A DNA stretch of 32,000 bases from Nanopusillaceae archaeon (GCA_049974095.1 JBMFJD010000006.1:1-32000); one strand, 5' to 3'. Counted from the first letter of the stretch, positions 1 to 17,813 are shown. Notes: generated by a model from the letters alone, not told the origin. A program made the numbers and translations.

Positions 1-32
1 TGAAAAAAGAGATAAAAAGTATACATGGGGTA

Positions 33-353
33 ATGTCTCCATTAGGTCCAATTGATTTAAAGGGGAAAAGGATAGATATAGATAAAGTTATAAAGGCATG
101 GATAGAATACCTAAAAACTATGAGAGTAGAGTATGTTTTAGCATTAGAAAAAGATGGAATAATAGCATATCTATTAGAATATTTAGGCGATGATATTGAA
201 AATCTTAAGAATATTGATATGAGGGATATAGCTATTATAGGTGGTAACGTGTATAAAGTACATAAATATTGGATAATGTACATAACTAGAGAAATGGGAT
301 TGTGGTTAGATATTCCACCAACCATTAGAGAGGAAGAGGCTTATTATAAATAA
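33..353 (+). CDS. hypothetical protein (106 aa), no recognisable domain
   Basis: ATG-initiated ORF followed directly by a T7 run (354-360). K/E/I-rich with G-ending codons like the rest of block A. Confidence 0.65.
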   Translation: MSPLGPIDLKGKRIDIDKVIKAWIEYLKTMRVEYVLALEKDGIIAYLLEYLGDDIENLKNIDMRDIAIIGGNVYKVHKYWIMYITREMGLWLDIPPTIREEEAYYK

Positions 354-425
354 TTTTTTTCGGTTTTGATGTTTTTTAAAAAACATAATTTTTTAAAAAT
401 ATGTTATATCTAAATTATTATATAA

Positions 426-471
426 CCTGCCAATAGGCAGGGATGTATACCTTTACCTAAAGGTATGAAAG
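426..471 (+). repeat. two-hairpin module: GC hairpin, AT hairpin, then GAAAG (solitary copy of the 9741-9914 repeat type)
   Basis: CCTGCC-AATA-GGCAGG (426-441), then ATACCTTT-ACCT-AAAGGTAT (447-466), then GAAAG (467-471). It is a local GC-rich island in AT-rich spacer. The architecture matches the units at 9781-9914. Confidence 0.4.
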
Positions 472-1019
472 AAAGAATTATTAAGGGGAAAGTATGTCAA
501 TTAAGTTATTTATAAATACATGTTTATTTATAAATTGTTATTTCAATATATATATTATGATAAAAATTAATTATATCATTAAACTTAATTATCATGATTT
601 TCATCATGTTAAAAAATTGAATTCTAAAAAAAGAAATTTATTAAAAAAGTTATTGTTAAGAAAATTACAAAATTATTTTAATGATAATAATAAAGTTAAG
701 TATAGAATCAATATTATAGTTTATCTAAATAACAAAAAATCATTATATATACTAATTCAAAAAAATAAAAATAAGATTGATGTTAAATATAAATATGTTT
801 TGATGAATAAGAAATATTTGAATTTTTTATTACAATATTTAAATTTTATTTTTGATAAAAATGATTTTTAGTTTTCTAATTTTTGTTAAAAATTCTTTTT
901 TTAGTTAAGATTATGTCAATAAGATTATTTATAAATTTTTATTTTTTTCAAAAACTTTTTTTTATTTTGGGGGATTGTTATATATTCATATAATATATAG
1001 ATATATGTAGGTTATTATA

Positions 1020-1045
1020 ACAAATGTTTATATGTGTTTTTTATA
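1020..1045 (+). promoter_or_regulatory. promoter cassette ACAAATGTTTATATGTGTTTTTTATA (TATA box plus conserved downstream GTGTTTT)
   Basis: The identical 26-mer recurs at 4543-4568 and 5422-5447, each 36-45 nt upstream of an ATG. TTTATAT is an archaeal TATA-like core. Confidence 0.7.
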
Positions 1046-1057
1046 ATAATTATAATA

Positions 1058-1867
1058 ATGGTTTTGATGGTGGGGAAAGTAAAACATGAAAAGTTAAATG
1101 AATTAGAAAAGGAAAAATGGGAGGAATTAAACATAAAGTCATTAATAGATTATATAGAGTTAGTGTATAAAGTAAGTAGTGATGAGAGTGAGAAAATAAG
1201 AAAAGTGTTAAAAGATTTAGTGAATTTAGTAAATTTAGAAATTGAAAAAGAAAAAGATGAATTAATGAAAAAAGTAAATATAGAAAAACCTTTAAACATA
1301 AGCATTAAGGACATTGAGAGAGTTAAGAGAGAGATAGAGAGATTAAAGAGAGATTATAATTATAAATATAATGAAATAGAAAAAATAAGAGTTAATGATT
1401 TAGAATTATATATTAATTATGAAATATATAGTAAATTTAAAGATAAGATTAAAAATAATGCATTTTGGGATGAGGATAAAAAAGCATGGATTTTTAAAGA
1501 TGAAAATAAGTTAAAAGAAATTTGGGAGGAAATAAAGAAAATAAAAGATGAAAAAATGAAAGAATTGGAAAAAATTAAGAATGAGATAGATAAAAAAGAA
1601 AATGAATTAAATAAAATATATGATGATATAAAAAGTAGAATGTACATAAAAATTAAAGAAAGTAATTTAATAGATATGAGTAATGGACATTATAAGTTTA
1701 TAATATATAGAGTTTATAGTAAGTTTAAAGAGGATCTATTATTATTAATAGATCATATTAATAATTCATTAATGAAAAAAGCATATGATCTTAAAAGCTT
1801 TATAGTTTATGATGAGAGTATGGGAGTTTATTATATAGATTATATTGATTTTGTAATATATAGATAA
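1058..1867 (+). CDS. coiled-coil-rich hypothetical protein (cassette 0; divergent relative of the paralog array)
   Basis: The ORF-track start at 1034 is a GTG inside the TATA box. The first ATGs are at 1058 and 1067, within the GTTTTGATG motif. Long K/E heptad-like stretches are followed by a beta-rich C-terminus. Confidence 0.75.
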   Translation: MVLMVGKVKHEKLNELEKEKWEELNIKSLIDYIELVYKVSSDESEKIRKVLKDLVNLVNLEIEKEKDELMKKVNIEKPLNISIKDIERVKREIERLKRDYNYKYNEIEKIRVNDLELYINYEIYSKFKDKIKNNAFWDEDKKAWIFKDENKLKEIWEEIKKIKDEKMKELEKIKNEIDKKENELNKIYDDIKSRMYIKIKESNLIDMSNGHYKFIIYRVYSKFKEDLLLLIDHINNSLMKKAYDLKSFIVYDESMGVYYIDYIDFVIYR

Positions 1868-1952
1868 TTTTTTAAATATTTTTTTGATAAACATGTTTTT
1901 CATAAAAAAGGTTTATAAGATTTTTTTATAATATATGACGTATAGGGTTTTG

Positions 1953-2807
1953 ATGGGTAGGAAAGATAAAATAATGGGAGAGATAAAACTTTTTTTAGAT
2001 AAACTAAGGAAAAAAGGGCTAGAGATAAATATGAAAGAAAATAAAAGCAGTATTTTGTTAGTAATAAACTATATAAACTTTGAAAAGCAAAGGGAAATAT
2101 TAGAGAAAGTAATCGAAGAGAATAAGATAAAGAAAAGGCATTTAAAATATATTAGTAATCTATTAAATGAGTATATTAAGATAAATATTTATTTTACATA
2201 TATAGAAAAAAAGCTAAATAGATTGATAGAATTAAGAAATACATTAAGAGATTTATATAATGAATATGATGAGAGTAAATATTTAGAGAAATTGAGGAAA
2301 GAAATTTATGATAAATTTAATAAATTATTAGAGGATTTAGCATATGCGATTAGAAATGAAATGGAGGAAAAAAGAGTTTTAAGGAAATATTTAAAGTATT
2401 TGAATAAGGAAATTGATTATGATGAGGAAATAAAAAATGTTGAAAATGCATTAAATGATTATCGTGTTAGAAAAAAGCTTTATAGTTTTATGAATTTGTT
2501 AAAGAAAAAAGTAAGAAAAATTGTAAATGATGATAATGTTAGATTGTTTAAAATTCAAAATGGTATAGTTTTAGTAATGGTTTATGAAAGTAAAAATTTT
2601 AATCAAGGATGGAATTATTATAGAAACAAGTTTTATTTAGTAGATTTGAGAAATAAAAAGTATATCGATATTACTAATATGTTAAAAGAAAAGTATTATG
2701 ATAAGTACAATGTTGATATAACAAAACAAATATTAGATAGATATGGGGTATATACGGATATAGTAGAAAGCTTATATAATATTGATATATTGAATTTTTT
2801 AAATTAG
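1953..2807 (+). CDS. tandem paralog 1 of an unknown ~280-aa family (N-terminal MGxKDK..EI..L..LRKKGL, central coiled coil, C-terminal NKFYLVDLRNK motif)
   Basis: Start chosen at the ATG in GGGTTTTGATGGG by analogy with paralogs 3 and 4 (alternative ATG at 1935). Stop is followed by TAGTTTTTT. Clear alignment to 2823-3638, 3697-4536 and 4579-5415. Confidence 0.8.
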   Translation: MGRKDKIMGEIKLFLDKLRKKGLEINMKENKSSILLVINYINFEKQREILEKVIEENKIKKRHLKYISNLLNEYIKINIYFTYIEKKLNRLIELRNTLRDLYNEYDESKYLEKLRKEIYDKFNKLLEDLAYAIRNEMEEKRVLRKYLKYLNKEIDYDEEIKNVENALNDYRVRKKLYSFMNLLKKKVRKIVNDDNVRLFKIQNGIVLVMVYESKNFNQGWNYYRNKFYLVDLRNKKYIDITNMLKEKYYDKYNVDITKQILDRYGVYTDIVESLYNIDILNFLN

Positions 2808-2822
2808 TTTTTTATTGTTTTG

Positions 2823-3638
2823 ATGTGTGAAAAGAATAATTTATTATGGGAAATTAGGATTTTGTTAGAAAAATTAGTTAAAGATAAAGGGTTATATGTT
2901 TATGAAAATGAGGGGAAATTTGAGTTTGAGATTGGGATATATTATACTAATGTTAAAAAACAAAAAGAAATGGTAGAGGAATTATTAAGAAAATATAATA
3001 TTGATGAAAAATATTATAGGTTTTTTGATGATTTGTTAAATAAAAGTTTTAAGATTGAAATTTTTAGTGATATAGTAAGTAAAAGAATAGATGAATTAAA
3101 AAGATTAAGGGATAAGTTAAAAGAAATATATGAGAATTTTAGGGAGGATGATTATTTAAAGAAATTTGAGGATAGGATAAATGAGGAATTTAAACATGAT
3201 TTGGATCATTTAAATAATTATTTAAAGAAAGAAAAATTATATTTGGATTATTTAAATGGGAAAATTGATTATAATGATGATATAAAGAAATTTGAGGATG
3301 ATTTAATTTTTAATGATGAATTAAAATATAAATCATGGATTTATGGGAAAATAAAGAGATATATTAAGAAATCATTAAAAAGTAGAAAATTTAAAATTAT
3401 ATGGATTAAAAGAGGGTTTGTTTTAGTAATATTATATAAAGATATAGGATATTTTAGTAATGGCAAGCAAGTATATTTTAATAATAAGTTTTATCTAATT
3501 GATTTAAGAAATAAGAAAGTGTTTGATGTTAGCAAAAAAATAGGTAAAGATTTGAGACATTTATATATTAATGAATTTAGGGATGATGATATGTTTTATA
3601 TGTATAATAATGTAGATGTTAGTGATTTGCTAATTTAG
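2823..3638 (+). CDS. tandem paralog 2 of the same family
   Basis: ATG lies within GTTTTGATG (2817-2825), only 15 nt after the paralog 1 stop, with no separate promoter seen. Shared motifs include YYTN..KQ, LDYLNGKIDY and NNKFYLIDLRNKKVFDVSKKI. Confidence 0.8.
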   Translation: MCEKNNLLWEIRILLEKLVKDKGLYVYENEGKFEFEIGIYYTNVKKQKEMVEELLRKYNIDEKYYRFFDDLLNKSFKIEIFSDIVSKRIDELKRLRDKLKEIYENFREDDYLKKFEDRINEEFKHDLDHLNNYLKKEKLYLDYLNGKIDYNDDIKKFEDDLIFNDELKYKSWIYGKIKRYIKKSLKSRKFKIIWIKRGFVLVILYKDIGYFSNGKQVYFNNKFYLIDLRNKKVFDVSKKIGKDLRHLYINEFRDDDMFYMYNNVDVSDLLI

Positions 3639-3696
3639 TTTTTTGGTTTTGATGATTTTCAATAAACATTTATAAGGTTTTAATATAATAATATAT

Positions 3697-4536
3697 ATGG
3701 TTTTGATGGGAAAAAAGGATAAAGTATTATTTGAAATAAAGGAATTATTAGAAAAGTTAAGAAAGGATAAGGGGTTATATATTATTGAAAGCGATGGGAA
3801 AGTAATATATTCATTATATATATATTATACAAATATAGAGTATCAAAGGAAATATGTTAATGATTTATTGAAAAAGCATAATATTAGTAAAAGATATTAT
3901 GGATTCTTTAGATATTTGTTAAGTGATTATGTTAGAGTACGTGTTTATGAGGCATATATAAGTAAAAAAGTTAAAACATTGGAAAAGGTTAGGGATGATT
4001 TAAAAAGGATATATGATAACTTTGATGAAAAAGTATATTTAGATAAGTTAGAAAAAGAGATAAATAATATTTTTGAAAATGATTTATGGCTTATGAATAA
4101 ATATATAGATGATATGAATAAATTAAGAGAGTTGGAAGATTATTATTTAAAATTTTTAGATAAGAAAGGGGATTATGATTTTGTTGTTAGGCAATTTGAA
4201 AATGAAATAATAAATGGTTATATTACTAAATATAAGTATAGAATAACTAAGATAATAAAGGATAGGATCAAGAAAATTATTAATGATAATAATTTTTCTT
4301 TGATTTGGATTAAAAATGGATTTGCTTTAATAGTAAATTATCGCGATAAATATTTTGAAAATGGGGAATGGGTTTATATAGATAATGCATTTTATTTAAT
4401 TGATTTGAGGAATAAAGGGGTGTTTGATGTTAGTAAAAAGATAGATGAATTTGTTGAAAAGACGGCAACAAAGGAAATAAGTAGTTATAATTTTAATATG
4501 CTAAAAAGGTTAAAATTAGAGGATTTGTTAATATAG
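3697..4536 (+). CDS. tandem paralog 3 of the same family
   Basis: TATA-like AACATTTATAAGG at 3665-3677. ATG at 3697 (alternative 3706, in GGTTTTGATGGG). Motifs include IYYTNIEYQRK, WIKNGFALIV and FYLIDLRNKGVFDVSKKI. Confidence 0.8.
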   Translation: MVLMGKKDKVLFEIKELLEKLRKDKGLYIIESDGKVIYSLYIYYTNIEYQRKYVNDLLKKHNISKRYYGFFRYLLSDYVRVRVYEAYISKKVKTLEKVRDDLKRIYDNFDEKVYLDKLEKEINNIFENDLWLMNKYIDDMNKLRELEDYYLKFLDKKGDYDFVVRQFENEIINGYITKYKYRITKIIKDRIKKIINDNNFSLIWIKNGFALIVNYRDKYFENGEWVYIDNAFYLIDLRNKGVFDVSKKIDEFVEKTATKEISSYNFNMLKRLKLEDLLI

Positions 4537-4542
4537 TTTTTT

Positions 4543-4568
4543 ACAAATGTTTATATGTGTTTTTTATA
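4543..4568 (+). promoter_or_regulatory. promoter cassette, identical 26-mer to 1020-1045
   Basis: Exact repeat ACAAATGTTTATATGTGTTTTTTATA, lying 36 nt upstream of the ATG at 4579. Confidence 0.7.
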
Positions 4569-4578
4569 TATAGTTTTG

Positions 4579-5415
4579 ATGGGATGGAAAGATAAAATGA
4601 TGGGAGAGATAAGGCTTTATGTAGAAATGTTAAGGAAAAAAGGGTTAGCGGTTGAATATGAGGAATATTGGAAAAAGATAAAGTTAAGGGTATATTATAC
4701 AAATTTAGGGTATCAAAGGAAAATTATAGATGAATTAATGAAAAAGCATAATATACCAAAGAGTTATATAGATAAGATATATTATTTAGAAAAATATTAT
4801 TATGAGTATATAAAGTTAAGATATTTAAAGGTTGATTATTGGATAAATAAGAGAAATTTAAAGGATTTATTAGAGAAATTAAAGAGTATATATAATAATT
4901 ATAATGAGGAAGAAAATTTAAAGTATATAAAAAATGTTATTGATAGTAATGTTAAGTTAATTTTAGATGAGGTAGAGGATTTAAGGAAAAAAGAGAAAGA
5001 AAAAAGAAAGAAATTAAAATTATATTTGGATTATTTAAATGGGAAAATTGATTATAGTAAGGAAATAAAGGACATTGAGGGATGGTTAAGTGATACAAAA
5101 TTAAAATATAGTAAAAAAGTAAGGGAATTTATTAAAGGTAAAATAGAGGGGTTATTAAACAATAAAAATATTAAGATTTTCAAAATTGAGAATGGTATTG
5201 CTTTAGTAATGACTTATGAGGATAAATATTTTAAGGGAGGGTGGAATTATGAAAATAATAAGTTTTATTTGGTAGATATAAGGAATGGAAATTATAAAGA
5301 TATTAGTAATATAATAACTAAAAAAGTAGATACTGAAAACAATATTTTAGAGTTATTAGGACCTGATGAAATTTATAGGCTTGAGAATATAAATATTATA
5401 GAATTGTTAGTTTAG
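4579..5415 (+). CDS. tandem paralog 4 of the same family
   Basis: The ORF-track start at 4555 lies in the TATA box. ATG at 4579 gives MGWKDKMMGEIRLY, matching the paralog 1 N-terminus. Shared motifs include LDYLNGKIDY and NNKFYLVDIRN. Confidence 0.8.
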   Translation: MGWKDKMMGEIRLYVEMLRKKGLAVEYEEYWKKIKLRVYYTNLGYQRKIIDELMKKHNIPKSYIDKIYYLEKYYYEYIKLRYLKVDYWINKRNLKDLLEKLKSIYNNYNEEENLKYIKNVIDSNVKLILDEVEDLRKKEKEKRKKLKLYLDYLNGKIDYSKEIKDIEGWLSDTKLKYSKKVREFIKGKIEGLLNNKNIKIFKIENGIALVMTYEDKYFKGGWNYENNKFYLVDIRNGNYKDISNIITKKVDTENNILELLGPDEIYRLENINIIELLV

Positions 5416-5421
5416 TTTTTT

Positions 5422-5447
5422 ACAAATGTTTATATGTGTTTTTTATA
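5422..5447 (+). promoter_or_regulatory. promoter cassette, identical 26-mer to 1020-1045
   Basis: Exact repeat, 45 nt upstream of the ATG at 5467. Confidence 0.7.
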
Positions 5448-5466
5448 ATATATAATATAGGTTTTG

Positions 5467-6591
5467 ATGACAGAAAAACAAAGTACTTTGTTAAAAGTAT
5501 TTGAGAGAGCTAGAAAGGAAAGGATAGCAATAGGATTATTTGGGAGTTATGGGATAGGAAAGAGTAGCTTAGTGTATCAATATGCATTAATGAAAAGTAG
5601 GGAGACTGGTAGGGAATTAAAAATATGGCATGAATTGACGGAAAAAGAGAAAAAAGAGATATTAGAAAATCCTGAAAAGTACTTTATAGTAGTAGATATA
5701 AAGGGTAGTTTAATATCATTGGATAATTTAGTGATACCAATACCTGGGGAAAATGGGATAAGATGGGAAATACCTTTATGGATGAAAGTATTTGAAAATG
5801 ATAAAAGTATGGGGATATTGTTTATTGATGAGATTAATATGACATTGCCATCATTACAAAGTCTATTATTTGAGTTAGTATTTCAAAGAAAGTTAGGGGA
5901 AAGTACAATAAAGGGAGATGTATTAATTATAACTGCAGGTAATGATTTGGAAAGTAATAATGTAGCTAAAGAATTACCACAACCGCTTGTTAATAGAATG
6001 ATATTTATTAATGCAAATGAAATATTTGATATTGAGGCATGGTTAGAATATGCAAAAAATAACAAAATAGATAATAGGGTAATCGGATGGGTATTGTTTA
6101 ATAATAGAAATATTAATTATTCTGGTGATGTTATGAAACAATCAACAACACCTAGATCTTTGGAAATGTTAAGTAAGATGATTAATGGGGAAAGGGACAT
6201 AAATTATATAAGGATGGTAGCATATGGATTATTAGAACAAAATGATGCATTACAATTTACTACATTCGTAGAATTATATGAAAAGTTTAGTGATATAGAT
6301 AAGTATATTGATAATATTGAATTATTAAAGGAATTAAAAGAGGATGAGAGGATTATTATTATGATGAAAATAACGGAAAGGTATATTAGTGATAAGTTAA
6401 GTTTAGAGAAATATTATAATGTATTGGATAGGTTAAGTGATATAAGTAAAATGTTAGTGGTATTTGCATTAAGGTATTTGAAATATCAAAATGTTGATAG
6501 GTTTAGGATATTGTTAGATAAGGTAATAAAGGAAAATAGTAAGGTTTATAATTTGTTAGGGCAAATGTTAGAATTTGAAAATAAATTATGA
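5467..6591 (+). CDS. MoxR-like AAA+ ATPase (AAA_5-like)
   Basis: Walker A GSYGIGKS, Walker B ILFIDEINM, sensor-1-like IITAGN. Size is ~375 aa. Its stop overlaps the ATG of the VWA gene (ATGA at 6588-6591), the classic MoxR-VWA pairing. Confidence 0.8.
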   Translation: MTEKQSTLLKVFERARKERIAIGLFGSYGIGKSSLVYQYALMKSRETGRELKIWHELTEKEKKEILENPEKYFIVVDIKGSLISLDNLVIPIPGENGIRWEIPLWMKVFENDKSMGILFIDEINMTLPSLQSLLFELVFQRKLGESTIKGDVLIITAGNDLESNNVAKELPQPLVNRMIFINANEIFDIEAWLEYAKNNKIDNRVIGWVLFNNRNINYSGDVMKQSTTPRSLEMLSKMINGERDINYIRMVAYGLLEQNDALQFTTFVELYEKFSDIDKYIDNIELLKELKEDERIIIMMKITERYISDKLSLEKYYNVLDRLSDISKMLVVFALRYLKYQNVDRFRILLDKVIKENSKVYNLLGQMLEFENKL

Positions 6592-7916
6592 TGGATGAGG
6601 AATTATTAAAGTTAGTAATTGCTAAAAATTTTCCATTATTTGCACCAATATTAAGTAAGATAAGGATAAAGGAAGATAAGAGTTTACAATATCCTGCAGG
6701 GTTGAATTATAGAGAAAGAACAATATATATTAATCCTGATCAATTTGATGAATGTAATAGTAAAGAAAAGATGTTTATAATAGCACATGAGATAATGCAT
6801 TATCTATTAGTACATGATCCTAAAGCATTGAGGGATAAAAATTTATTGTTAGTATTTAATTTAGTTAGGGATGCACAAATCAATCATATATTATATAAAC
6901 AAATGAACTATATGGCAGAGGGGGTTATAACATTAGATATATTAGAAAGTATGAGTGATAAGGTAAGGGAATACTTTGATGGGGATGTTGAAAAATTCCT
7001 TAATGAGGATGAGTATTTTATTGTTAAGTTAATGTTAGAGGATGAGAAAGTTAAGGGGATGATCAATAAGATGATTGATGTATTAGAAAGCGGGGATGAT
7101 CTTGATGAAATTAGTAAGAAAATTAAGGATATATTAAGAGAGAATGGGGTTAATGTGGATTTAGATGAGATTAGTAGGGATATAGTAAAAGAATATAATG
7201 AAAGTAAGGAATTGGGGGAAATGAGTGATGAGGAAATAAGGAAAATTGTTAATGAGGGTATGGAAATGTTAGAGAAAGGTAGGTTATTAAGTAAAATGTT
7301 TAATCCTGAAAGTAAGGAATTAGATATAAAGTTAAGGAAAAAAAGGATTAAATGGAAAGAGGCATTAAGGCAGGTAATGAGTGAGATAGGGGCATTGGCT
7401 ACGGATTATGATTTAACAAAATTGGATAAGAAAGCATGGGTATTAAAGACATATGTACCTGGTGTTATAAAGGAAAATGAAAGTATTAATGTAATAATTG
7501 GTATAGATGTAAGTGGTAGTATTAGTGATTATGAATATATGGAATTTATTAATGAGGTATATAATTTAATGAGTGATGTAAAGGTAAATGGGAAAATAGT
7601 ATTATGGGATGATAAGGTTGAGAGAGTGGTTAAGGTGGATAATGGATGGAATAATGAAATATTGAGAGAATTAAAGAATAGAGTAGGTTATGGGGGTACA
7701 ATAATAAAGGAATTCTTTAATAAGGCTAATGAGTTAGTAAGGAATAAGAGAAATAGTTATTTGATAATATTGACTGATGGGGAACATGAAAAGGTAGATA
7801 GAGAATGGGTTAAGGATTATAAGAAAGTGGTATTTGTTATAAGTAAGAATGGAAAGGTTGAGAATCTGATGGGTATAAAGGATATGAAAAATGTATATAT
7901 TACTTTTTTAGAATAA
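6588..7916 (+). CDS. VWA-domain protein with N-terminal HExxH putative metallopeptidase domain (DUF2201-like architecture)
   Basis: HEIMH in IIAHEIMHYLLVHD. MIDAS-like GIDVSGS followed by LTDGE in the C-terminal half. Translationally coupled to the upstream MoxR gene. Confidence 0.75.
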   Translation: MMDEELLKLVIAKNFPLFAPILSKIRIKEDKSLQYPAGLNYRERTIYINPDQFDECNSKEKMFIIAHEIMHYLLVHDPKALRDKNLLLVFNLVRDAQINHILYKQMNYMAEGVITLDILESMSDKVREYFDGDVEKFLNEDEYFIVKLMLEDEKVKGMINKMIDVLESGDDLDEISKKIKDILRENGVNVDLDEISRDIVKEYNESKELGEMSDEEIRKIVNEGMEMLEKGRLLSKMFNPESKELDIKLRKKRIKWKEALRQVMSEIGALATDYDLTKLDKKAWVLKTYVPGVIKENESINVIIGIDVSGSISDYEYMEFINEVYNLMSDVKVNGKIVLWDDKVERVVKVDNGWNNEILRELKNRVGYGGTIIKEFFNKANELVRNKRNSYLIILTDGEHEKVDREWVKDYKKVVFVISKNGKVENLMGIKDMKNVYITFLE

Positions 7917-7932
7917 TTTTTTTAAAAAAATT
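7915..7932. terminator. bidirectional oligo-T terminator / perfect palindrome AATTTTTTTAAAAAAATT
   Basis: It sits between convergent stops (7914-7916 plus strand, 7931-7933 minus strand) and gives a T7 run on each strand directly after each stop. Confidence 0.6.
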
Positions 7933-8662
7933 AGAGTAAACCGGAATTGTATAACCTTATTGCTTTCCTTATGCTTACACCATCACTAAATAGTTTTTCA
8001 TATTTTTCATCAGGTAATATTACACCTGCTTTTTGTAGAATTTTTTTATATTTATCCTGGTCCATTTTTATCTCAAATTTTAAATCAAACCTATCTAATA
8101 TATACTTTGGTATTTTTGTTATATCATTTGCTACACCTATGACTTGAACACCTTCATTATATACATCTATTAATGCATCTTGTACTGCTCTAGGCATTTT
8201 ATCAATTTCATCTATTAATATACCAAATCCATATGGTTTTGCTACGGTTTTGTAAAATAGTAATTCATTTTTCTTTGTAGTACTTCCTACTGTAAATATG
8301 TATCTTTGTAATCTTGATATTTCTTCTAATAGGTATGATTTTCCAATACCTGAACCACCTACTATTAATATCCATAGTTTGTTTTTCAATCCTATTAAGA
8401 ATTTGTCCCTATCATTATCATCTAATATTGTTAAGTCTATATCATTTATGTCTGCTTTACTGTTCTCAAAATCTGCAATATATTGTTTTCCATCTTCAGT
8501 TATTCTTACATACATGTGTCTATTTGTTATGCTTATCTCTACTAATCCTTCGCTATACATTTTTTTGAACAATTCTTTTATGTTTCTCTCATATCCGCTT
8601 ACTTCTACATAGTCACCTTCTTTTGCTATCTTCTTCAACAATATGTATTTTAGTACGTCCAT
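7931..8662 (-). CDS. compact AAA+ ATPase with N-terminal winged-helix domain (Orc1/Cdc6-RFC clade-like)
   Basis: N-terminal wHTH-like 70 aa. Walker A GGSGIGKS, Walker B ILIDEIDKM, GVAN sensor-1, ILDRFDLKFEI. Lid ends in SDGVSIRKAIRL, which resembles the GDxRxAI motif of clamp-loader/initiator AAA+ proteins. Confidence 0.65.
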   Translation of the reverse strand: MDVLKYILLKKIAKEGDYVEVSGYERNIKELFKKMYSEGLVEISITNRHMYVRITEDGKQYIADFENSKADINDIDLTILDDNDRDKFLIGLKNKLWILIVGGSGIGKSYLLEEISRLQRYIFTVGSTTKKNELLFYKTVAKPYGFGILIDEIDKMPRAVQDALIDVYNEGVQVIGVANDITKIPKYILDRFDLKFEIKMDQDKYKKILQKAGVILPDEKYEKLFSDGVSIRKAIRLYNSGLL

Positions 8663-8708
8663 AATATATTATTGTCTTTAGTATTTATAAACATGTGTTT
8701 GACACATG

Positions 8709-9269
8709 TTAACCATTAGTTAACTTTATAAATTCATTTTGTATATTTGCTAAGTGTTTTAGTACTATTGATTTATCTAAATATGTAAATGATACGATGT
8801 TATGCTTAAAGTCTATTGGGGCAGACCTGTCAACTATTTTAATCCTGCCCTCTTTGTTTACTTTATTCATAAAGAAATCGATAAATAACCCTAATACTGG
8901 TGTGTATTCATCAGCACCAATATATAGCCATATATTTATTGGTTTGTTATAGTCCTCTAGTACATCACCATTTACAATTACTGGTCTGCCATTTTCATCT
9001 AGTAATACATCATAATCTATTATCCATTTATATCCCGCTATCTCTTTGTCTTTATGTTCTTTTAACATTTGATCGATTTCTTGGTATGGGAATACTAGAG
9101 TATCTGGATAGTTTACAGTTAAGTATATACCTCTGTCACCTATAGATACATCAGATGTTTGATAGAAAAATTTTAAGAGATCGTTAAATACTTTTTCAAT
9201 TTTCTTATACTTGTTGTATTGGTTGTCCTTGTTCATACTGGTTTTGTAGGATTTGTAGTAATAATTCAT
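8709..9269 (-). CDS. hypothetical protein (186 aa)
   Basis: ATG ORF. It overlaps the upstream gene by 65 nt; an alternative ATG at 9236 reduces the overlap to 32 nt. No motif recognised. Confidence 0.65.
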   Translation of the reverse strand: MNYYYKSYKTSMNKDNQYNKYKKIEKVFNDLLKFFYQTSDVSIGDRGIYLTVNYPDTLVFPYQEIDQMLKEHKDKEIAGYKWIIDYDVLLDENGRPVIVNGDVLEDYNKPINIWLYIGADEYTPVLGLFIDFFMNKVNKEGRIKIVDRSAPIDFKHNIVSFTYLDKSIVLKHLANIQNEFIKLTNG

Positions 9270-9651
9270 TATCTGATATTAAATCTTTTGAATCTATTGG
9301 TAAGCCTAATTCTTTCATCTTATTAATTAATTGTAGTGTCATGCTTTTGTCAATCCTTTCTAGTAAGGATAATGAAAATATTATGCCTTGATGGAAATTT
9401 TTGTTTAGGTTTGGTATGATATCTTTTCTTGTTATTATGTATAGTGATCCTACTTTGTTTATTGCATATTTATCTAGATTGTTTATTACCCTATCTAATA
9501 CTCTGTGGTATACTATCTGGGCTACTGTCCTGCTAACCTGTTCATGTTTTATTATTTCTGGTATTGATAGATATAGTACGCCTTTCTGATCTACTTCTTT
9601 TAAAAGAGAATTTACATGTAGTTCAAGTTCTTCTTTACTTATCCTGCCCAT
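9205..9651 (-). CDS. hypothetical protein, possible winged-helix DNA-binding protein (148 aa)
   Basis: ATG ORF. The segment LSIPEIIKHEQVSRTVAQIVYHRVLDRVINNL..SLYIITRK looks like an HTH plus wing. Confidence 0.6.
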   Translation of the reverse strand: MGRISKEELELHVNSLLKEVDQKGVLYLSIPEIIKHEQVSRTVAQIVYHRVLDRVINNLDKYAINKVGSLYIITRKDIIPNLNKNFHQGIIFSLSLLERIDKSMTLQLINKMKELGLPIDSKDLISDNELLLQILQNQYEQGQPIQQV

Positions 9652-9740
9652 AAAATATTTTATCGATAAATATGTTTTTAAATATTTGTTTTCATGTGTG
9701 ATGTTAGATTTATGAAAATTTAGTATATTTATTATATATC

Positions 9741-9914
9741 GTTTAAAGAAAACTAGTAGTATTGAAAGAAATGTATTGAAGGAAATAGATCCGTTTAAAG
9801 TAAACTAGGAGTAGATGAACCCGATAAGGGGGATTGTTAAAACAAACCTAGAAGGTTTGAAAGATGGGGCTCGATAAGAGCCGACGGGTTATAAAAAACC
9901 TAGAAGGTTTTTTT
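9741..9914. repeat. four degenerate 27-28 nt CRISPR-repeat-like direct repeats, period 52/43/52 nt
   Basis: R1 9741-9768 GTTTAAAGAAAACTAGTAGTATTGAAAG. R2 9793-9820 GTTTAAAGTAAACTAGGAGTAGATGAAC. R3 9836-9863 GTTAAAACAAACCTAGAAGGTTTGAAAG. R4 9888-9914 GTTATAAAAAACCTAGAAGGTTTTTTT. Inter-repeat segments are 24, 15 and 24 nt and carry small GC hairpins with GATAA-type loops. Confidence 0.55.
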
Positions 9915-10824
9915 ATTCTATTTTTCCAAAGATTACTATTAATGGTTTTTGTAGATCTTTATCTTCTGTAAATACTTTTGCGTTTGTTATAGATCTTAAG
10001 TACATGTCTATTAGTCCTTGACCTTCATAGAATTTTTTAACACCTTCTCCCATTGTATAATATCTCATACCTTTAGATGCTTCTCTTATATCGGACATAA
10101 ATAGACCTGTGTTTAGTAATACGTATTTCCATGCCTCATATACATATTTGTTTTCTGGTGTTTGGTCTATTCTTTTACCATTAAATAATATATAGTAGTC
10201 CCATGGTTTCATCACGTACTCTACCTTGTCAACACCTATTTTATATTTAAGGTCTAATTCTATATCACTGCCATTTTCTACCCTATTTTCACCAAATATT
10301 CTAATTAATTCATTTTTTACATTTGTAAATTCTTTTCTTGATAACCAGTTTATGAATTTATCATCCCACAGTACTTTTGCGTTTAATTTTGTTAATGATG
10401 TTGTAACTAATAGATTCCAGTCATCATTTTCTTCCATTGATACATAACCATCATATCTGGCAGATACGTATAGGTTTTTCATTGTATTACCTGTTGATAC
10501 ACCAACATCTGGTGTTATATAACATACGTTTTTACTACAGGTATCTTCTAATTCTTCTACTAATTCTTTTAATCTTGGGTTTCTATTATGGAAAATATAA
10601 TAATTGGAACCTGGGGTAAAATCATTACCTGTATTTCTACTAATTGCTCTTAATGATGCATCTGTAAATCTAAATTTTTTACCATCACCAGTTTCACATG
10701 TATAAAAGTTATAACGAACTTTACTGGTCTCTAATCTACAGACCATTTCGTTAGAATTTTCGAATATCTTTCCTACTATGTATAATGAATATGTTGATGA
10801 GTCTATTATGTATGTATCTGTCAT
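9913..10824 (-). CDS. hypothetical protein (303 aa)
   Basis: ATG ORF. Its stop is embedded in hairpin R4 (9893-9913). No motif recognised. Confidence 0.7.
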   Translation of the reverse strand: MTDTYIIDSSTYSLYIVGKIFENSNEMVCRLETSKVRYNFYTCETGDGKKFRFTDASLRAISRNTGNDFTPGSNYYIFHNRNPRLKELVEELEDTCSKNVCYITPDVGVSTGNTMKNLYVSARYDGYVSMEENDDWNLLVTTSLTKLNAKVLWDDKFINWLSRKEFTNVKNELIRIFGENRVENGSDIELDLKYKIGVDKVEYVMKPWDYYILFNGKRIDQTPENKYVYEAWKYVLLNTGLFMSDIREASKGMRYYTMGEGVKKFYEGQGLIDMYLRSITNAKVFTEDKDLQKPLIVIFGKIE

Positions 10825-10885
10825 ATATTATTTATTGCTATTTTTGTTTAAATGTCTAGTTCTCATAAATATTGAAACATGATTA

Positions 10886-12871
10886 TCATTCGCTCGATTT
10901 TCTTCTTTTCTTTATTAATATTAATGGGATAAGTACTAATGCTGAGATGGTAAATATTGTAGATGTAATTGTTATATAGTTGAATTCTCTGGTCATTGTT
11001 GAGTGTAGATATATTTGTATTGATTTGTTTATGGTTATATTTTTTGGATCTATTGTATATATGTCATAGTAAAAGAAATGGTCTTCTACCAGTACTGATT
11101 TATTGATATATATTTTCTGGTCTGCGGGTAAATAATCTGAATATGATTTTATATTTGTTATTGTTGTATTTCCTATGGTTATATTTATTGGTATTTGAGA
11201 GTCTATTTTCACATAGTATTCGGGGGTACAATAGTTTAGTAATTGTATTTCTCTTGATCCGTATGTTGTTATGTATATTTGATTTGGACATTCATACCTT
11301 AGATCATTATAGTAGTAGTATTTTTCTAATGATATAGATAATGTTGTACCATTCTTAGCATAAATAGTACCTTTACCAATGTATTTTTGACCATCTACAT
11401 AATATACACCGGCAGGTATTGTAAAGTTAACCTGGTATTCTGGTACACAATAGTTTAGTAACTGGACTGTTCCTGGACTGTATACTGGTACATATACTAA
11501 ATAAGGACATTCATATCTTATAGCATCGTAGTAGTAGTATCTATTAAGGTATACTATTATAGTTGTACCATTTTCGACAGTAAAGGTATTTCTACCCTGG
11601 TACTGTTTACCATCTATATAGTATGTGCCATTTGGTAGGATAAGATCAACATAATAATATAGAGTATAATCTGGATTAATCGTGTAAGATTTATTAATTA
11701 GTAATGGTATAACCGGACCAGGGTAAGATACGTTATTTACATATATGCCTTTTAGGTAATAATATCCACCAGGTACATATATTTTTGGTTGGAAAGTATA
11801 TATTTTGTACAGGACTACTGGGTATTGTTCTATATGATATCTTTTTGTTATTGGGTCATATATGGTTACTGTAAATGGTTTGTATGGTACATTGCCTAGA
11901 TAATCTGGACGGAAATTATCAGTATTTAGGTATACTGATGTTGAGGATACTGGTAATGGATTGATATTTGTTGATGTTTCTGCTGTGGACAGTCCATAGT
12001 TAAATACGTAAGGGACTGGTGTTAATATACCGTTGTTATTGTATAGTAATGTTAGATACCCACTTACTTGAGTTACATACACACAGTCCTCACCACTTAA
12101 ACCACCTATAACTAATTCAAGATTTTGTGGTGATTCTACTGGTGTTAATTGTGGAGCAACCTGGAAATATGCAGATTTTGATGGTACTTGTATTGTTACA
12201 TTATCATACCAGATTATATTATTACCATCTGTTGAATATCCAAATTGTATTACTGGGTAATTACCAGACATGGTTACATTGGTAATTAAGTATATTACAA
12301 AGGGGTAGGCTAATGAGTATTTGTTAGTGTAATATATGTAGACATAAGTATAACTTAGAAGAGGTGGATAACCATACATACTACCTTTACCAGACAATAG
12401 TTTACTTTTAGCTATTGTTTGATACTTATCTATTTCCCAGATATTATTTACTAATCTATAATAGTTGTTATCATTATTTATATCTACTGTATTCTGGACC
12501 CATAGATAATATGTTTTTCCATCATCAGCATTAATTAATAGTACGCCGTTTAGTTGTATGGATGAAGCATCATAATATTTTTCTTTATTACATTTGTTAC
12601 CAGGTCTGACATGTAAGTAATCTAAATATACAAAGCCAATTATTTCGTTTGTTATATATGAATACTGGTATGCTTCACCATTTTTAATTGCAATACCATA
12701 GTCTGAAATTCCTATTGGCATATAGATTAAATTTGGGTTGGACGGGTCTGGTTTAAAATTTTGTACAAATGAGTCATAACAACCATAACCATTAATAACA
12801 CATGTTTGTGCTATTGAAAAAGGATATATGGCAGGTAGAGATACAGATAGGGATAGACCAAAAAGATCCAT
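10886..12871 (-). CDS. thermopsin-family (peptidase A5-like) protein with two C-terminal ~73-aa repeats and a C-terminal membrane anchor
   Basis: Residues ~45-305 align by eye to Sulfolobus thermopsin as I recall it: PIGISDYG, YITNEIIGFV, SIQLNGVL, YYLWVQN, NNIWE, ELVIGG and ILTPVPYVFNYGLSTAETS. Tandem repeats occupy aa ~406-479 and 480-552. The C-terminus is a TM segment followed by KKRRKSSE. Many N-x-S/T sequons. Confidence 0.65.
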   Translation of the reverse strand: MDLFGLSLSVSLPAIYPFSIAQTCVINGYGCYDSFVQNFKPDPSNPNLIYMPIGISDYGIAIKNGEAYQYSYITNEIIGFVYLDYLHVRPGNKCNKEKYYDASSIQLNGVLLINADDGKTYYLWVQNTVDINNDNNYYRLVNNIWEIDKYQTIAKSKLLSGKGSMYGYPPLLSYTYVYIYYTNKYSLAYPFVIYLITNVTMSGNYPVIQFGYSTDGNNIIWYDNVTIQVPSKSAYFQVAPQLTPVESPQNLELVIGGLSGEDCVYVTQVSGYLTLLYNNNGILTPVPYVFNYGLSTAETSTNINPLPVSSTSVYLNTDNFRPDYLGNVPYKPFTVTIYDPITKRYHIEQYPVVLYKIYTFQPKIYVPGGYYYLKGIYVNNVSYPGPVIPLLINKSYTINPDYTLYYYVDLILPNGTYYIDGKQYQGRNTFTVENGTTIIVYLNRYYYYDAIRYECPYLVYVPVYSPGTVQLLNYCVPEYQVNFTIPAGVYYVDGQKYIGKGTIYAKNGTTLSISLEKYYYYNDLRYECPNQIYITTYGSREIQLLNYCTPEYYVKIDSQIPINITIGNTTITNIKSYSDYLPADQKIYINKSVLVEDHFFYYDIYTIDPKNITINKSIQIYLHSTMTREFNYITITSTIFTISALVLIPLILIKKRRKSSE

Positions 12872-13454: not shown

Positions 13455-13476
13455 ACAAATATTTATATGTGTTTTT
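13455..13476 (+). promoter_or_regulatory. promoter-like element ACAAATATTTATATGTGTTTTT pointing into the inverted repeat, with no ORF downstream
   Basis: It matches the block A promoter cassette at 20 of 22 positions. Its first 20 nt are identical to the reverse complement of 31333-31352, upstream of the RHH gene. On the plus strand the only downstream reading is ATG GTA AAA AAC TAG. Confidence 0.45.
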
Positions 13477-13601
13477 GGTGGTATGGTAAAAAACTAGTTT
13501 TTCTAAATATATATATTATGAAAGTTATTACCGATTTTTGCATGTTAAGTCGTATATTAGGAAGATATGTATAAAGGTAGGGAATTTTGGTAAGCCATAG
13601 A

Positions 13602-14401
13602 GGAATGAGTTTATAAATGTTTGCGCCTCAAAATTTGACTAAAATTTATCTTTTATTTCGGACCCCCCTTAACAAAAAAGAAAATCACCTTTCTGTTCCA
13701 ACTTTGAAGTGATAAAAATAGTATATTATATTATGTTTTGTTTAGAATATATACAATATATAATATAGAAAAAATTTATAAATTTTTTATAATATGTGTT
13801 AATATGTGTTACATTTGTTTTTATTTGTTCACATATTTATATTTGTTATTTGCTATATGTGTTATTATGTGTATATGTTACTATTGTTACTAAGTAGTAG
13901 TTACATAAATGTATTTATAAATATATCGATATAAATATATATTATATAGAATAGCATGTTTAAAAAATATATATAGAAAAATATATATTAAAAAAAATAT
14001 ATAGCTAGAAGTATGTCAAAAAATAAATGTCACTACTTATTAATAATAAATAGTAACATAATAATTTAAATAATTTTTTAATAATAATAATAATTTATTA
14101 TTATTATTAATAACAACTACTTAGTAATAATAGTAAATATAAGTAACTACTGTATAGTGGTAGTAGTAAAAATAACACATATTTACACATATAACACATA
14201 AAAACACATATATAGAAAAATTTATAAATATTAAGTACAATATATAGTATAACTATTTCTATGTTAACAAATAATTGATATCTATGTTATCACTTTTTAG
14301 TAAGGGCAGTTTTTGGTAAAAGTTTTTGTGAAAGGGGGGTCAAAAAATAAATGATAAATTTGAGTCCAATTATGAGGCGTAAAAATTTATAAATACATTC
14401 C
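13602..14401. repeat. large imperfect inverted repeat: arms ~13602-13904 and ~14110-14401, spacer ~205 bp
   Basis: Arms align as reverse complements at about 75-85% identity by eye. C6 (13663-13668) mirrors G6 (14334-14339). TTACTATTGTTACTAAGTAGTAGTTAC (13878-13904) mirrors 14110-14136. Confidence 0.85.
13905..14109. other. nearly pure A/T core of the inverted repeat (candidate DNA-unwinding element or terminal-repeat junction)
   Basis: (A)nTATATA(T)AG direct repeats at 13962-14005. ATATCGATAT palindrome at 13923-13932. The (AAT)5..(ATT)4 palindrome at 14080-14111 runs just past the core into the right arm. Confidence 0.5.
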
Positions 14402-14514
14402 AAAATATACAAAAATACTTTCTATAGGAATACCTGTACATTCTATAAAGTCATGATAGACGTTCAAAAATAAGATGCGAATTTCTTTTAAAGTTATCTG
14501 AAATAATATATTTT

Positions 14515-15680: not shown

Positions 15681-17813
15681 ATGGCAGCGGAAAAAGGAAA
15701 AAAAGATAAATTTGTTTTTAGCGGATCCATTATATCACTACAGCAACTCGAGGCCTATATACCAGATAAATTGAAAGAAATGTATATAAATTTTTTGAAG
15801 CAACAAGCCCAACAAATTACACTTGTTGACCAGTCAGCAAGATACTATTTTGAGATAATTAAAAAGCAAGCTATCGAAAATTTCTTTAAATTAGAAGATT
15901 TTGAATATACTTTTATAAATTTTGAAGATTTATATAAGTTTTTACATTCTTTAAAGAAAGGATCAGAATTTAGTAAAGCAGGAAGTGTAATTAAATATTT
16001 ACTACAACATTATGTGAATGAAGATCTACAGATCACATGGCACCTTCCAATATTCGTAAAAAATATTCCTGATAATTATACAAAAACTGTAAAAGAATTT
16101 TTTAAATCAAATGATGACGATATTGTTATCTTGAAAGGCATTATCAATTCTATAACATATATAGAAGGTATTCCAAGATATTTTCTAATTCAACACTCAT
16201 TGTGTGGAGGTAGGTTCTTAATTGAGAATGATATACCAACTAATAAAGATTTGAGGAATATACTAAAAGTTAAAGTAAATTCATGTCCATTGTGTGGCTC
16301 TCCTGAAGGCCAATTTATTGTTGAGCATATTGTTACAACAAATGCATATAAGTTAACAATAACCGATATTCCTAAAGATGAAGGAAAAGAAATACAATCT
16401 ATTGAGGCATATCTATTTGGTAGTGCAATAGATATGTATAGTGTACAACATACAAGAGTTAATTTGGTTGGTATTGCCAGGAGGGTATTTGATGGTAAAG
16501 AAGCAAGAGCATATTTAGAAGTTATTGGTATTGAACCTACAGAAAAAACAGTAGAAGATATAGAATTAAAAGACGAAGATATAAGAAAGATTGAAAATAT
16601 TGTTAAGGAATCCGGATATGATATAATTGATATGGTAGCGGAATCTATGTTACCAAATATAAAAGGAGAGCATTACAAATATATTAAAAGAGCTGTGTTA
16701 TTACAGGCTATATCTGTTAGTCAACAAAAAGAAATTGATTTATTAGCAGATAGATTACATATAAATATATTGTTATTAGGAGATCCAGGTACAGGTAAAT
16801 CTACATTATTAAGAACAATTGCAAAATTAATACCTAGATCAAGATATACTGTAGCTACTTCCTTAACAAAGGCAGGTTTACTGGGTACAGTTACAAAATC
16901 TGAAGAGGGTAAATGGGTATTAGAAATTGGTGCATTACCATCCGCATCTGGTGGAATATTATGTATTGATGAAGCAAATAAGTTATCTTTCGATGATATA
17001 AAATCGTTAAATGAGGCAATGGAACATGGAACAGCAACAATCGATAAGGCAGGTGTACATGTAACATTAAGGGCAAATGCAGCAGTATTAGCAGCGGCAA
17101 ATCCAAAATATGGAAGGTGGGATCCAAATAGGGAATTAATAAGCCAGATAGATATAGAACCAACGATGTTATCAAGGTTTGATTTAATATTCGTATTGAG
17201 GGATATACCAAACAAAGAACAAGATATATTAGAAGCTATGGAGATATTAGGAAGAAATAAAGTTAAAAAGATGTTATTCGATAAAGATTTTATATTAAAA
17301 TACATAGCATATGCTAGAACAATAAACCCAGAATTAACTAGCGAAACGGAAGCATATATTGCAAAATTATATGCTGATCTAAGGGATAAAACCAAAGAAG
17401 AATTTCCAGTAACTAGAAGGCAATTACAAACAATAAGAAGGTTGGCAATTGCTATTGCAAAAGCAAGATTAAGCAATGTTGTTACAAAGGAAGATGTTGA
17501 TTATGCATGGGAAATAATGTCAAATAGTATATATAGCATTATTGGTAAAAATGCTACTGTTCTGGATTTTGGTGTTGTTGAAACTGGAGTTAGGAGTAGC
17601 ACAAAAACCAGAACAATGTTAGTAAAAGAGGTTATTCAACAATTAAATAAAATGTATGGTAAAGGTGTTACCTTTAATGATATATATAATTATCTAAAAG
17701 AAAAGTATAATCTAGATATATCTCAATATGAGCTTAGAGAAATTATTAATGTATTGAAACATACTGGAGATATATATGAACCAGATGAGGGTTTATACCT
17801 TGCAATATTTTAG
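15681..17813 (+). CDS. mcm: MCM replicative helicase, full length (710 aa)
   Basis: N-terminal Zn-motif HSLCGG...CPLCGS. Walker A GDPGTGKS (DNA ~16779-16802), Walker B ILCIDEANKL, sensor-1 AAANP, arginine finger SRFDLIFVL, lid RRQLQTIRRLAIAIAKA, C-terminal winged helix. Confidence 0.9.
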   Translation: MAAEKGKKDKFVFSGSIISLQQLEAYIPDKLKEMYINFLKQQAQQITLVDQSARYYFEIIKKQAIENFFKLEDFEYTFINFEDLYKFLHSLKKGSEFSKAGSVIKYLLQHYVNEDLQITWHLPIFVKNIPDNYTKTVKEFFKSNDDDIVILKGIINSITYIEGIPRYFLIQHSLCGGRFLIENDIPTNKDLRNILKVKVNSCPLCGSPEGQFIVEHIVTTNAYKLTITDIPKDEGKEIQSIEAYLFGSAIDMYSVQHTRVNLVGIARRVFDGKEARAYLEVIGIEPTEKTVEDIELKDEDIRKIENIVKESGYDIIDMVAESMLPNIKGEHYKYIKRAVLLQAISVSQQKEIDLLADRLHINILLLGDPGTGKSTLLRTIAKLIPRSRYTVATSLTKAGLLGTVTKSEEGKWVLEIGALPSASGGILCIDEANKLSFDDIKSLNEAMEHGTATIDKAGVHVTLRANAAVLAAANPKYGRWDPNRELISQIDIEPTMLSRFDLIFVLRDIPNKEQDILEAMEILGRNKVKKMLFDKDFILKYIAYARTINPELTSETEAYIAKLYADLRDKTKEEFPVTRRQLQTIRRLAIAIAKARLSNVVTKEDVDYAWEIMSNSIYSIIGKNATVLDFGVVETGVRSSTKTRTMLVKEVIQQLNKMYGKGVTFNDIYNYLKEKYNLDISQYELREIINVLKHTGDIYEPDEGLYLAIF

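Follow-up and report, generated by a model that had tools for sequence, protein, structure and literature searches.

The DNA considered here, hereafter the window, comprises 32,000 nucleotides (nt; JBMFJD010000006.1, positions 1-32000) of a metagenome-assembled genome (MAG; GCA_049974095.1), and NCBI carries its proteins under the name "MAG: Nanopusillaceae archaeon", with locus tags ACP5GJ_02435-02450 and a contig of 59,894 bp; the Nanopusillaceae fall within the Nanoarchaeales. Its left 5.5 kb, in which all genes lie on the plus strand, the GC content is 20% and the GC skew about +0.77, holds a tandem array of gene cassettes: a protein termed A is followed by B, C, D and E, these four being members of one protein family, and behind these come the genes for a MoxR-like AAA+ ATPase and a VWA-domain protein (Table 1). 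Elsewhere the window has genes for a full MCM helicase, for a truncated MCM and for a third AAA protein that is MCM-like, besides a non-coding kilobase that resembles an origin, a membrane protein with a thermopsin domain and numerous secreted or membrane ORFans; there is no tRNA or housekeeping gene in the window, and Rfam and tRNA scans of it gave no match. Given this content, the window looks like an MCM-encoding mobile element, a virus or a plasmid, associated with Nanopusillaceae (Nanoarchaeota), tiny archaea of hot springs, and its left part is the variable accessory-gene region of the element, laid out as an array of separately expressed cassettes.

Table 1. Features of the left part of the window, in window coordinates (aa, amino acids; BRE, B-recognition element; MIDAS, metal-ion-dependent adhesion site; dN/dS, ratio of nonsynonymous to synonymous substitution rates)
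Feature	Position	Strand	Remarks
Small basic protein, 104 aa	557-871	+	Left anchor of the variable cassette region
Promoter-like 26-mer, copy 1	1020-1045	+	BRE/TATA-like, TTTATATG; upstream of A
Protein A, 266 aa	1067-1867	+	K/E-rich; unrelated cassette
A→B junction	1868-1952	+	T-run, degenerate promoter (1907-1926), GGTTTTG before ATG
Paralog B, 284 aa	1953-2807	+	L001 ortholog 73% identical, dN/dS 0.23
B→C junction, TTTTTTATTGTTTTG	2808-2822	+	15 nt, without promoter; reads ATTGTTTTGATG
Paralog C, 271 aa	2823-3638	+	The last L001 copy is its ortholog, 80% identical, dN/dS 0.23
Central LYLDYLNGKIDY motif of C	3233-3273	+	41 nt identical to E 5016-5056
C→D "scar" junction	3639-3705	+	T-run, vestigial GGTTTTGATG (3645-3654), degenerate promoter, real GGTTTTG-ATG
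Paralog D, 276 aa	3706-4536	+	Structure-modelled copy; closest relatives 45-54% identical (P0005, L002)
D→E junction	4537-4578	+	T-run, exact 26-mer promoter (4543-4568)
Paralog E, 278 aa	4579-5415	+	L001 ortholog 83% identical, dN/dS 0.30
E→AAA junction	5416-5466	+	Exact 26-mer promoter (5422-5447), GGTTTTG-ATG; equivalents in L010, L003
MoxR-like AAA+ ATPase, 374 aa	5467-6591	+	Walker A GSYGIGKS, Walker B ILFIDE
VWA protein with N-terminal zincin-like peptidase domain	6588-7916	+	HEIMH; MIDAS DVSGS

A preliminary description of the region, made from the sequence alone, had announced an array of five coiled-coil cassettes, four of them clear tandem paralogs, diversifying between identical flanks; that headline needs three corrections, in that the paralogs are four, the genes are conserved and the flanks are mostly generic. 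The family itself stands, and the find has more structure than chance would give. B–E align end to end at 31-43% identity, with composition-corrected BLASTP E values of 1e-22 to 1e-55, and their scores without that correction (136-219 bits) lie far above the 51-bit maximum of 200 shuffles of each partner (z = 20-41), while 26 columns are invariant in a family alignment of 11 sequences. B–E are true paralogs over their full length, and such scores mean that the similarity is not merely compositional. The notion that these open reading frames (ORFs) are no family and share only a K/E/I/N bias suits a region of low GC content with a skewed amino-acid alphabet, and it does describe A, which resembles B–E by composition only; as for B–E, it would have undone the preliminary description on the latter's own terms, but its probability is close to nil, for it is refuted by the figures just given, by the purifying selection on orthologs from independent metagenomes and by a confident AlphaFold2 model. 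As a fifth paralog A was rejected, its hhalign probability being 0.4% and its BLAST scores against B–E lying within the shuffle range (z <= 2.2). The coordinates first proposed hold for B, C and E, but the likely starts of A and D are the ATGs in GTTTTGATG at 1067 and 3706 rather than those at 1058 and 3697.

An AlphaFold2 model of D, computed from a 7-sequence alignment (predicted local-distance difference test, pLDDT, 91; predicted TM-score, pTM, 0.69), confirms the three-part build anticipated for the family: the N-terminal part is alpha/beta, the middle helical and variable, and the C-terminal domain beta-rich and conserved. Residues ~1-86 are modelled, from residue 3, as a helix, a beta-hairpin, two helices and a strand; residues 89-192, the stretch that had been described as a coiled coil, as four helices, one of them 44 residues long; and residues 197-241 as a six-strand beta-meander, followed by short helices up to residue 275 at the C-terminus. 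The C-terminal domain modelled alone adopts the same fold (pLDDT 90). It is the middle that is least conserved, with 16-30% identity vs 50-73% in the C-terminal domain (30-residue sliding windows). The proteins carry a net charge of +6 to +16, and no transmembrane segment or signal sequence was found in them. Foldseek with the full D model gave best E values of 0.79 (PDB) and 0.03 (BFVD), hence no significant fold match, and with the C-terminal domain against PDB a best value of 0.4, the hits being beta-propeller blades, Sm and Tudor folds, none of them significant.

Sequence searches likewise point to a new and very narrow family that is close to being an orphan. A word-seeded profile search of 5.8 billion proteins returned 6 members, and an exhaustive HMMER search of 1.84 billion representatives returned 12 family proteins, all at E <= 1e-19 and without a remote tail. 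Scans of the paralogs with Pfam, PHROGs and PADLOC gave sub-threshold noise only (in Pfam, no match at E <= 0.1 for B–E); the best hit of a profile search of PDB sequences, ribosomal L35 at E 0.017, was judged spurious; and tblastn of D found no match in 50,697 phage and archaeal-virus records. No relatives appeared in IMG/VR scans with the family profile, the AAA+ and VWA proteins, an AAA+ profile and a 24-mer of the promoter, nor did megablast of 12 kb of the window match phages or plasmids. The preliminary description had recognized no homologs and had allowed that a well-known family might still claim these proteins; the curated libraries hold no homolog, and Pfam, PHROGs, PADLOC, PDB and Foldseek place them in no such family.

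The cassettes adjoin at junctions of 11-67 nt, each a T-run with or without a promoter plus GTTTTG, and three types can be told apart: short promoter-less junctions, junctions with a promoter (D→E, E→AAA) and scars (C→D, and 354-371 in the window). In all four family genes a TAG stop is followed by TTTTTT (the stop of A is TAA), and the stops of B, C, D and E precede four of the seven occurrences of TAGTTTTTT in the window, where 1.8 are expected; GTTTTGATG has nine sites, all on the plus strand and only within 363-5469, against an expectation of 0.32. The stereotyped boundaries that had been described thus hold at the stops, but B→C has no promoter and reads ATTGTTTTGATG rather than GG.... 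In the same way the 26-mer ACAAATGTTTATATGTGTTTTTTATA does recur exactly at 1020, 4543 and 5422, but its use extends beyond the array: the TATA-like core has 11 close variants over the 32 kb (0.5 expected), and since they lie on both strands throughout the window they represent the general promoter of the element. Short junctions consist of TAG, 4-8 T, an optional ATT and GTTTTG-ATG, 11-17 nt in all; B and C, joined in this way, are probably co-transcribed, and such junctions recur in the related loci L010 and L003, also beside unrelated cassettes. In scars a vestigial GGTTTTGATG stands right after the stop, and a degenerate promoter then precedes the real start; the vestigial copy at 3645-3654 opens a 7-codon ORF, and junctions of this composite make-up also occur at L010 4242-4316 and 1524-1650 as well as at 354-371 in the window. 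The A→B junction is homologous to L010 587-668, that is, to the 3' end of the 104-aa anchor gene plus a promoter.

By general knowledge of archaeal transcription, the T-run would be a terminator, TTTATATG a BRE/TATA promoter and GTTTTG-ATG a start context, so that the identical flanks once taken as a sign of diversification are largely generic signals. A scan for sigma-70 promoters and hairpin terminators, which is bacterial, says nothing about an archaeal element; window 1-8000 yielded no stem-loops. A Shine-Dalgarno role of GGTTTTGATG was rejected by reasoning, as only UGAU could pair with the 3' end of archaeal 16S rRNA and it overlaps the start codon. These TTTTGATG/T-run boundaries appear to be the sites at which cassettes are gained, lost and reordered, as a comparison of loci suggests.

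The contigs compared are the related L001/L010, L002-L005 and L007, and the more distant L006, L009, L012 and L014. The backbone is collinear with L010 over window 378-868 (L010 129-617, 82% identity) and 5016-10852, with a DNA identity of 82-87%, and the variable stretch lies between the 104-aa gene and the AAA+ gene, its content differing in each related contig. The anchor itself has a counterpart of 79% identity in L001/L010 (306-635) and occurs in L005/L007 too. Up to the AAA+ gene the cassettes run A-B-C-D-E in the window, B'-x150-E'-F-x137-G-C' in L010 and x150-F-G in L003, and in L005/L007 unrelated small genes are followed by an A-like gene, H and a truncated G; x150 and x137, which are unrelated cassettes, use exactly the same boundaries as those of the family. 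The copy-number variation for which the preliminary description had proposed to look is therefore present, with 1-5 family copies per related contig in differing order. Protein A with its promoter forms a ~1-kb insertion relative to L010, which is without the A cassette: an imperfect direct repeat of ~22 nt, TTTTTGATAAANATGNTTTTT, containing TTTTTGATAAA, flanks it at ~851-872 and ~1884-1905, and L010 has a single copy of the repeat. In L007 a 192-aa gene matches the C-terminal half of A at 37% identity (E 4e-13). The MAG of the window (ACP5GJ) also holds a 28,986-bp contig with an L001-type AAA+ gene (ACP5GJ_04400), whose product is 89% identical to that of the window (ACP5GJ_02450), the cassette arrays being different; both contigs being in one MAG, two related elements either co-occur or were co-binned. 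A binning error is the probable reason why L005 (JAGDVT010000029.1), an 8.5-kb element of archaeal type, is filed in GenBank under a MAG of "Candidatus Paceibacter", a bacterium of the Candidate Phyla Radiation (CPR).

At least eight subfamilies can be distinguished, with orthologs 73-93% identical between elements and paralogs 28-49% identical; on these sequence identities, the paralogs are old subfamilies retained across elements. Whole-gene Nei-Gojobori dN/dS values, from two sequences per subfamily (window vs L001), are 0.23-0.30 for B, C and E, like those of eight flanking backbone genes (0.08-0.28). Thus, each copy is maintained by purifying selection, and the diversifying family of the preliminary description gives way to a conserved one. 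What remodels the array is the gain, loss and reshuffling of whole cassettes, together with gene conversion and mosaicism, not fast diversification by point mutation. The central LYLDYLNGKIDY motif is, by the same comparisons, a gene-conversion tract or recombination hot spot: there, C and E of the window share GGG while C' and E' of L010 share GGA over an identity of 43 nt, so that paralogs within an element are more alike than orthologs between elements, as in concerted evolution. B' of L010 carries an E-type patch of 30 nt, and the truncated stand-alone C-terminal halves P0012 and P0013/L005 begin just upstream of the motif. The L002 copy (6-623) and P0005 are 100% identical over the last ~130 residues and 23-43% identical on the N-terminal side, switching at YLKFLNKEIDY, the same central motif; this mosaic could be a real recombinant or a chimera of metagenome assembly.

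The pair downstream of the array is intact in its motifs as read from translations: Walker A and B, the MIDAS (DxSxS) and HExxH. The AAA+ protein matches phrog_1297 at 1e-40, with weak Pfam matches to AAA_5 and Sigma54_activat, and some of its homologs are named MoxR-like ATPase by the Joint Genome Institute (JGI). The VWA gene overlaps the AAA+ gene by 4 nt and its product matches phrog_1314 at 1e-40 and, in Pfam, DUF2201_N (1.3e-10), VWA_CoxE (3.8e-8) and DUF2201 (2.9e-7); the phrog_1314 label "HNH endonuclease" is doubtful. Wherever the junction is visible (the window, L010, L003, L002 and L005/L007/L004), a gap of 0-56 nt separates the last family copy from the AAA+ gene downstream of it. 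Even in L006, whose AAA+ protein is 44% identical, the gene directly upstream codes for a 281-aa protein that matches the family profile (hhalign 86.7%, E 4e-6, 234 columns), the sole such match among 41 neighbouring proteins of six loci (next best 4.4%); a search with this distant homolog recovered itself only.

The C-terminal -LL[IV] tail of the family is conserved and its codons vary synonymously, and in L006 a similar -[LSIY]I tail, again with synonymously varying codons, ends at least 6 unrelated protein families. Tails kept despite such variation imply that a hydrophobic C-terminus is selected at the protein level, and it may be a shared recognition tag. At L006 613-12795 a single array of 17 same-strand cassettes is separated by near-identical spacers of ~30 nt (TAA TTTTTT AAATTTTAAA..AATTTTTG ATG); it includes internal paralog sets of 248/267/338, 133/135/141 and 185/188/192 aa, and most of its proteins end in -[LSIY]I.

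As for the rest of the element, its PHROG matches are confined to the MCM, AAA+ and VWA proteins, the remainder being ORFans, secreted, membrane and thermopsin-domain proteins among them, and no deposited archaeal virus has an MCM more than 33% identical to that of the element. The full-length MCM lies at 15681-17813 (Pfam 1.8e-64); behind a fragment with only the AAA core (18933-19790, 1.3e-38) comes a 602-aa ORFan; and the third MCM-related gene of this one element codes for a short MCM/AAA-like protein (7931-8662, minus strand). The origin-like kilobase (13460-14510), near the MCM genes, has imperfect inverted arms of 84 nt (13746-13829 / 14174-14257); the ATATGTGTTA motif recurs in it, and GGACCCCCC (~13661) is mirrored by GGGGGGTC (~14333). 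A 661-aa protein (10886-12871, minus strand) combines a thermopsin domain (Pfam 9.4e-51) with internal repeats and a C-terminal transmembrane anchor, its L010 counterpart having 593 aa. Two GC-rich hairpins, CCTGCCaataGGCAGG and ATACCTTTacctAAAGGTAT, at 427-468 in the 20%-GC spacer upstream of the 104-aa gene, have no match in Rfam or tRNA scans. Cytosine makes up 1.5-3.3% of the sense strand in genes A–E (1067-5415), 4-6% in the AAA+ and VWA genes (to 7916) and 8-18% in the rest of the element. This extreme depletion leaves the low-C genes with a reduced amino-acid alphabet, P+H+Q+T+A being only 2-5% of residues, and so yields proteins of unusual composition; the cause may be that a strand under heavy transcription is deaminated, or else purine loading or avoidance of C-containing targets.

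The one positive clue to function that the sequences offer is the invariant adjacency to the MoxR-like AAA+ and VWA-peptidase genes. On the precedent of the MoxR-vWA ternary systems of bacteria and of the proteins p618 and p892 of Acidianus two-tailed virus (ATV), our preferred reading, a tentative one, is that the family proteins could be dedicated partners, clients or adaptors, of a MoxR-VWA-peptidase module. Besides the linkage, the retention of the copies under purifying selection and the C-terminal tail speak for it. The MIDAS site of the VWA domain would capture a conserved exposed acidic or C-terminal peptide of a family protein, the AAA+ ring would remodel or release it and the fused peptidase would possibly cleave it, while the non-redundant paralogs, being several, would differ in specificity or join into a hetero-oligomeric assembly. 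The array itself changes through gene conversion and mosaic formation around the central LYLxYLNxxIDY motif and through cassette moves that appear to take place at the stereotyped boundaries. Both the physical and functional coupling to the MoxR-VWA pair and the ultimate role, assembly or morphogenesis versus conflict, are what we infer; the virion, filament or conflict-module roles put forward in the preliminary description could still apply. Several points weigh against this proposal. The adjacency might reflect nothing more than synteny inside a small clade; the AAA+/VWA pairs of L009, L012 and L014 have no family member in the contig parts available, so that the pair does not need the family; and most cassettes have their own promoter, which means no strict operon with the AAA+ and VWA genes. 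Moreover, no sequence or fold similarity links the family to VMAP-C, to ATV virion proteins or to known MoxR clients, and no hallmark genes of capsid or packaging were found in the window, so that the element may or may not be a virus.

A wider version, which we regard as improbable, would have these elements run a cassette system not described before, in which oligo-T and TTTTGAT(G)-delimited genes are inserted, deleted and reordered by recombination at the TTTTGAT(G) core, as the vestigial GGTTTTGATG scars, the direct repeats around the A insertion and the boundaries common to unrelated cassettes would suggest. The hydrophobic C-terminal tag (-LLI/-LSI) of several unrelated families would deliver their proteins to the MoxR-VWA-peptidase machine, of which the four paralogs would be the core, obligatory clients.

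Among the rivals of the partnership proposal, a somewhat doubtful but still serious one holds that the paralogs act independently, as host-takeover or anti-defence proteins with targets in the host, be it the nanoarchaeon or its crenarchaeal partner, so that the adjacency to the AAA+ and VWA genes is incidental. The variable region would then be a place of the kind where archaeal viruses and plasmids commonly collect such genes. The orphan status that is typical of them, the strong individual promoters, the copy number of 1 to 5 with truncated copies, and the position of the array between conserved backbone blocks, with content that differs per contig and is mixed with unrelated small ORFans, are all in keeping with it. 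Against this, the dN/dS of the family is not above that of backbone genes, the subfamilies are old and retained, a member is kept at the same position even in the distant L006, and there is no match in PADLOC or to anything else related to defence. A sensor or adaptor in an element-borne MoxR-vWA "ternary" conflict system, serving superinfection exclusion or an abortive response, is unlikely. In this variant the variable helical middle would recognize invaders and the VWA-fused peptidase would be the effector. Such a role would fit the tripartite, VMAP-like architecture with its variable all-alpha middle and conserved alpha+beta C-terminal domain (PMC7159879), the middle being the part that varies most among multiple paralogs and mosaics. 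The described systems are bacterial and chromosomal, however, the orthologs are under purifying selection, and the VWA effector here is a single constant peptidase. Nor did B–E match Pfam: among the results there was no model named VMAP-C, whose presence in the Pfam copy is unchecked, although that copy did include the ternary-system model bpMoxR (PF20030).

Less likely again, the paralogs could be basic nucleic-acid-binding or scaffold proteins concerned with genome compaction, segregation or replication. They are K-rich and positively charged without membrane or signal segments, their helical region could dimerize, and the element has MCMs of its own as well as an origin-like region. Yet no helix-turn-helix, ribbon-helix-helix, Sm or other such fold was detected (best Foldseek E 0.4-0.8), and because composition is set largely by the extreme avoidance of C in the DNA, the basicity may be a by-product.

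Whichever of these readings applies, the locus adds to the almost undescribed mobile elements of Nanoarchaeota a confidently modelled protein family whose sequence relatives all come from a few metagenome contigs of hot-spring type and for which no fold relative was detected. Were the partnership with the AAA+/VWA pair true, the paralogs would offer a tractable client set for a viral MoxR-VWA system, the second archaeal case after ATV. The boundaries, cassette reshuffling and gene conversion together make a small natural system for following how accessory regions of archaeal mobile elements are remodelled.

In the MoxR-vWA ternary systems, the third component, VMAP, combines a helical middle that varies with an alpha+beta C-domain that is conserved (Kaur, Burroughs, Iyer & Aravind 2020, PMC7159879). 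Similarly, genes for a MoxR-type AAA+ and a vWA protein here adjoin a tripartite third protein, a resemblance only, and an effector domain, here the zincin-like peptidase, is fused to the vWA protein. In contrast, the present family is without detectable homology to VMAP-C or any Pfam family, resides on an archaeal mobile element instead of a bacterial chromosome, is multiplied to 4-5 tandem paralogs with orthologs under purifying selection, and accompanies a peptidase placed N-terminal to the VWA domain. In ATV, the MoxR ATPase p618 and the VWA protein p892 interact with the virion or filament proteins p387, p653 and p800 (PMC4124505). Both are thermophilic-archaeal mobile elements with a MoxR-type AAA+ and a VWA protein, and both offer several helix-rich proteins of unknown fold as possible clients; unlike ATV, however, the element here may be a virus or a plasmid, its AAA+ has 374 aa rather than 618, and the comparison of D by tblastn and of its model in BFVD (E 0.03) finds no similarity. 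The VMAP and ATV parallels are best taken as functional analogies, not memberships.

The phage-type AAA+/VWA pair, which the window shares through its matches to phrog_1297 and phrog_1314 (~1e-40 each), is a widespread viral module found also in L009, L012 and L014; by contrast, the upstream paralog family is absent from PHROGs and from the available parts of those three loci. Integron arrays resemble the present one in their tandem same-strand cassettes, in stereotyped boundaries that unrelated cassettes also use, in order and content that differ between close relatives, and in scar junctions. An integron cassette array was nevertheless rejected on both integrase and attC: no integrase or recombinase was matched by Pfam among ORFs of >=90 aa in the 32-kb window, there is no attC-like hairpin, window 1-8000 being free of stem-loops, junctions shrink to 11-17 nt and a promoter of its own accompanies most cassettes. 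From archaeal viruses and plasmids, tandem multicopy families of ORFans in variable regions are known, and the present paralogs parallel them in being element-specific, variable in copy number and clustered in a variable region; they differ in being larger (~275 aa), multi-domain members of old subfamilies that are always linked to the AAA+/VWA pair.

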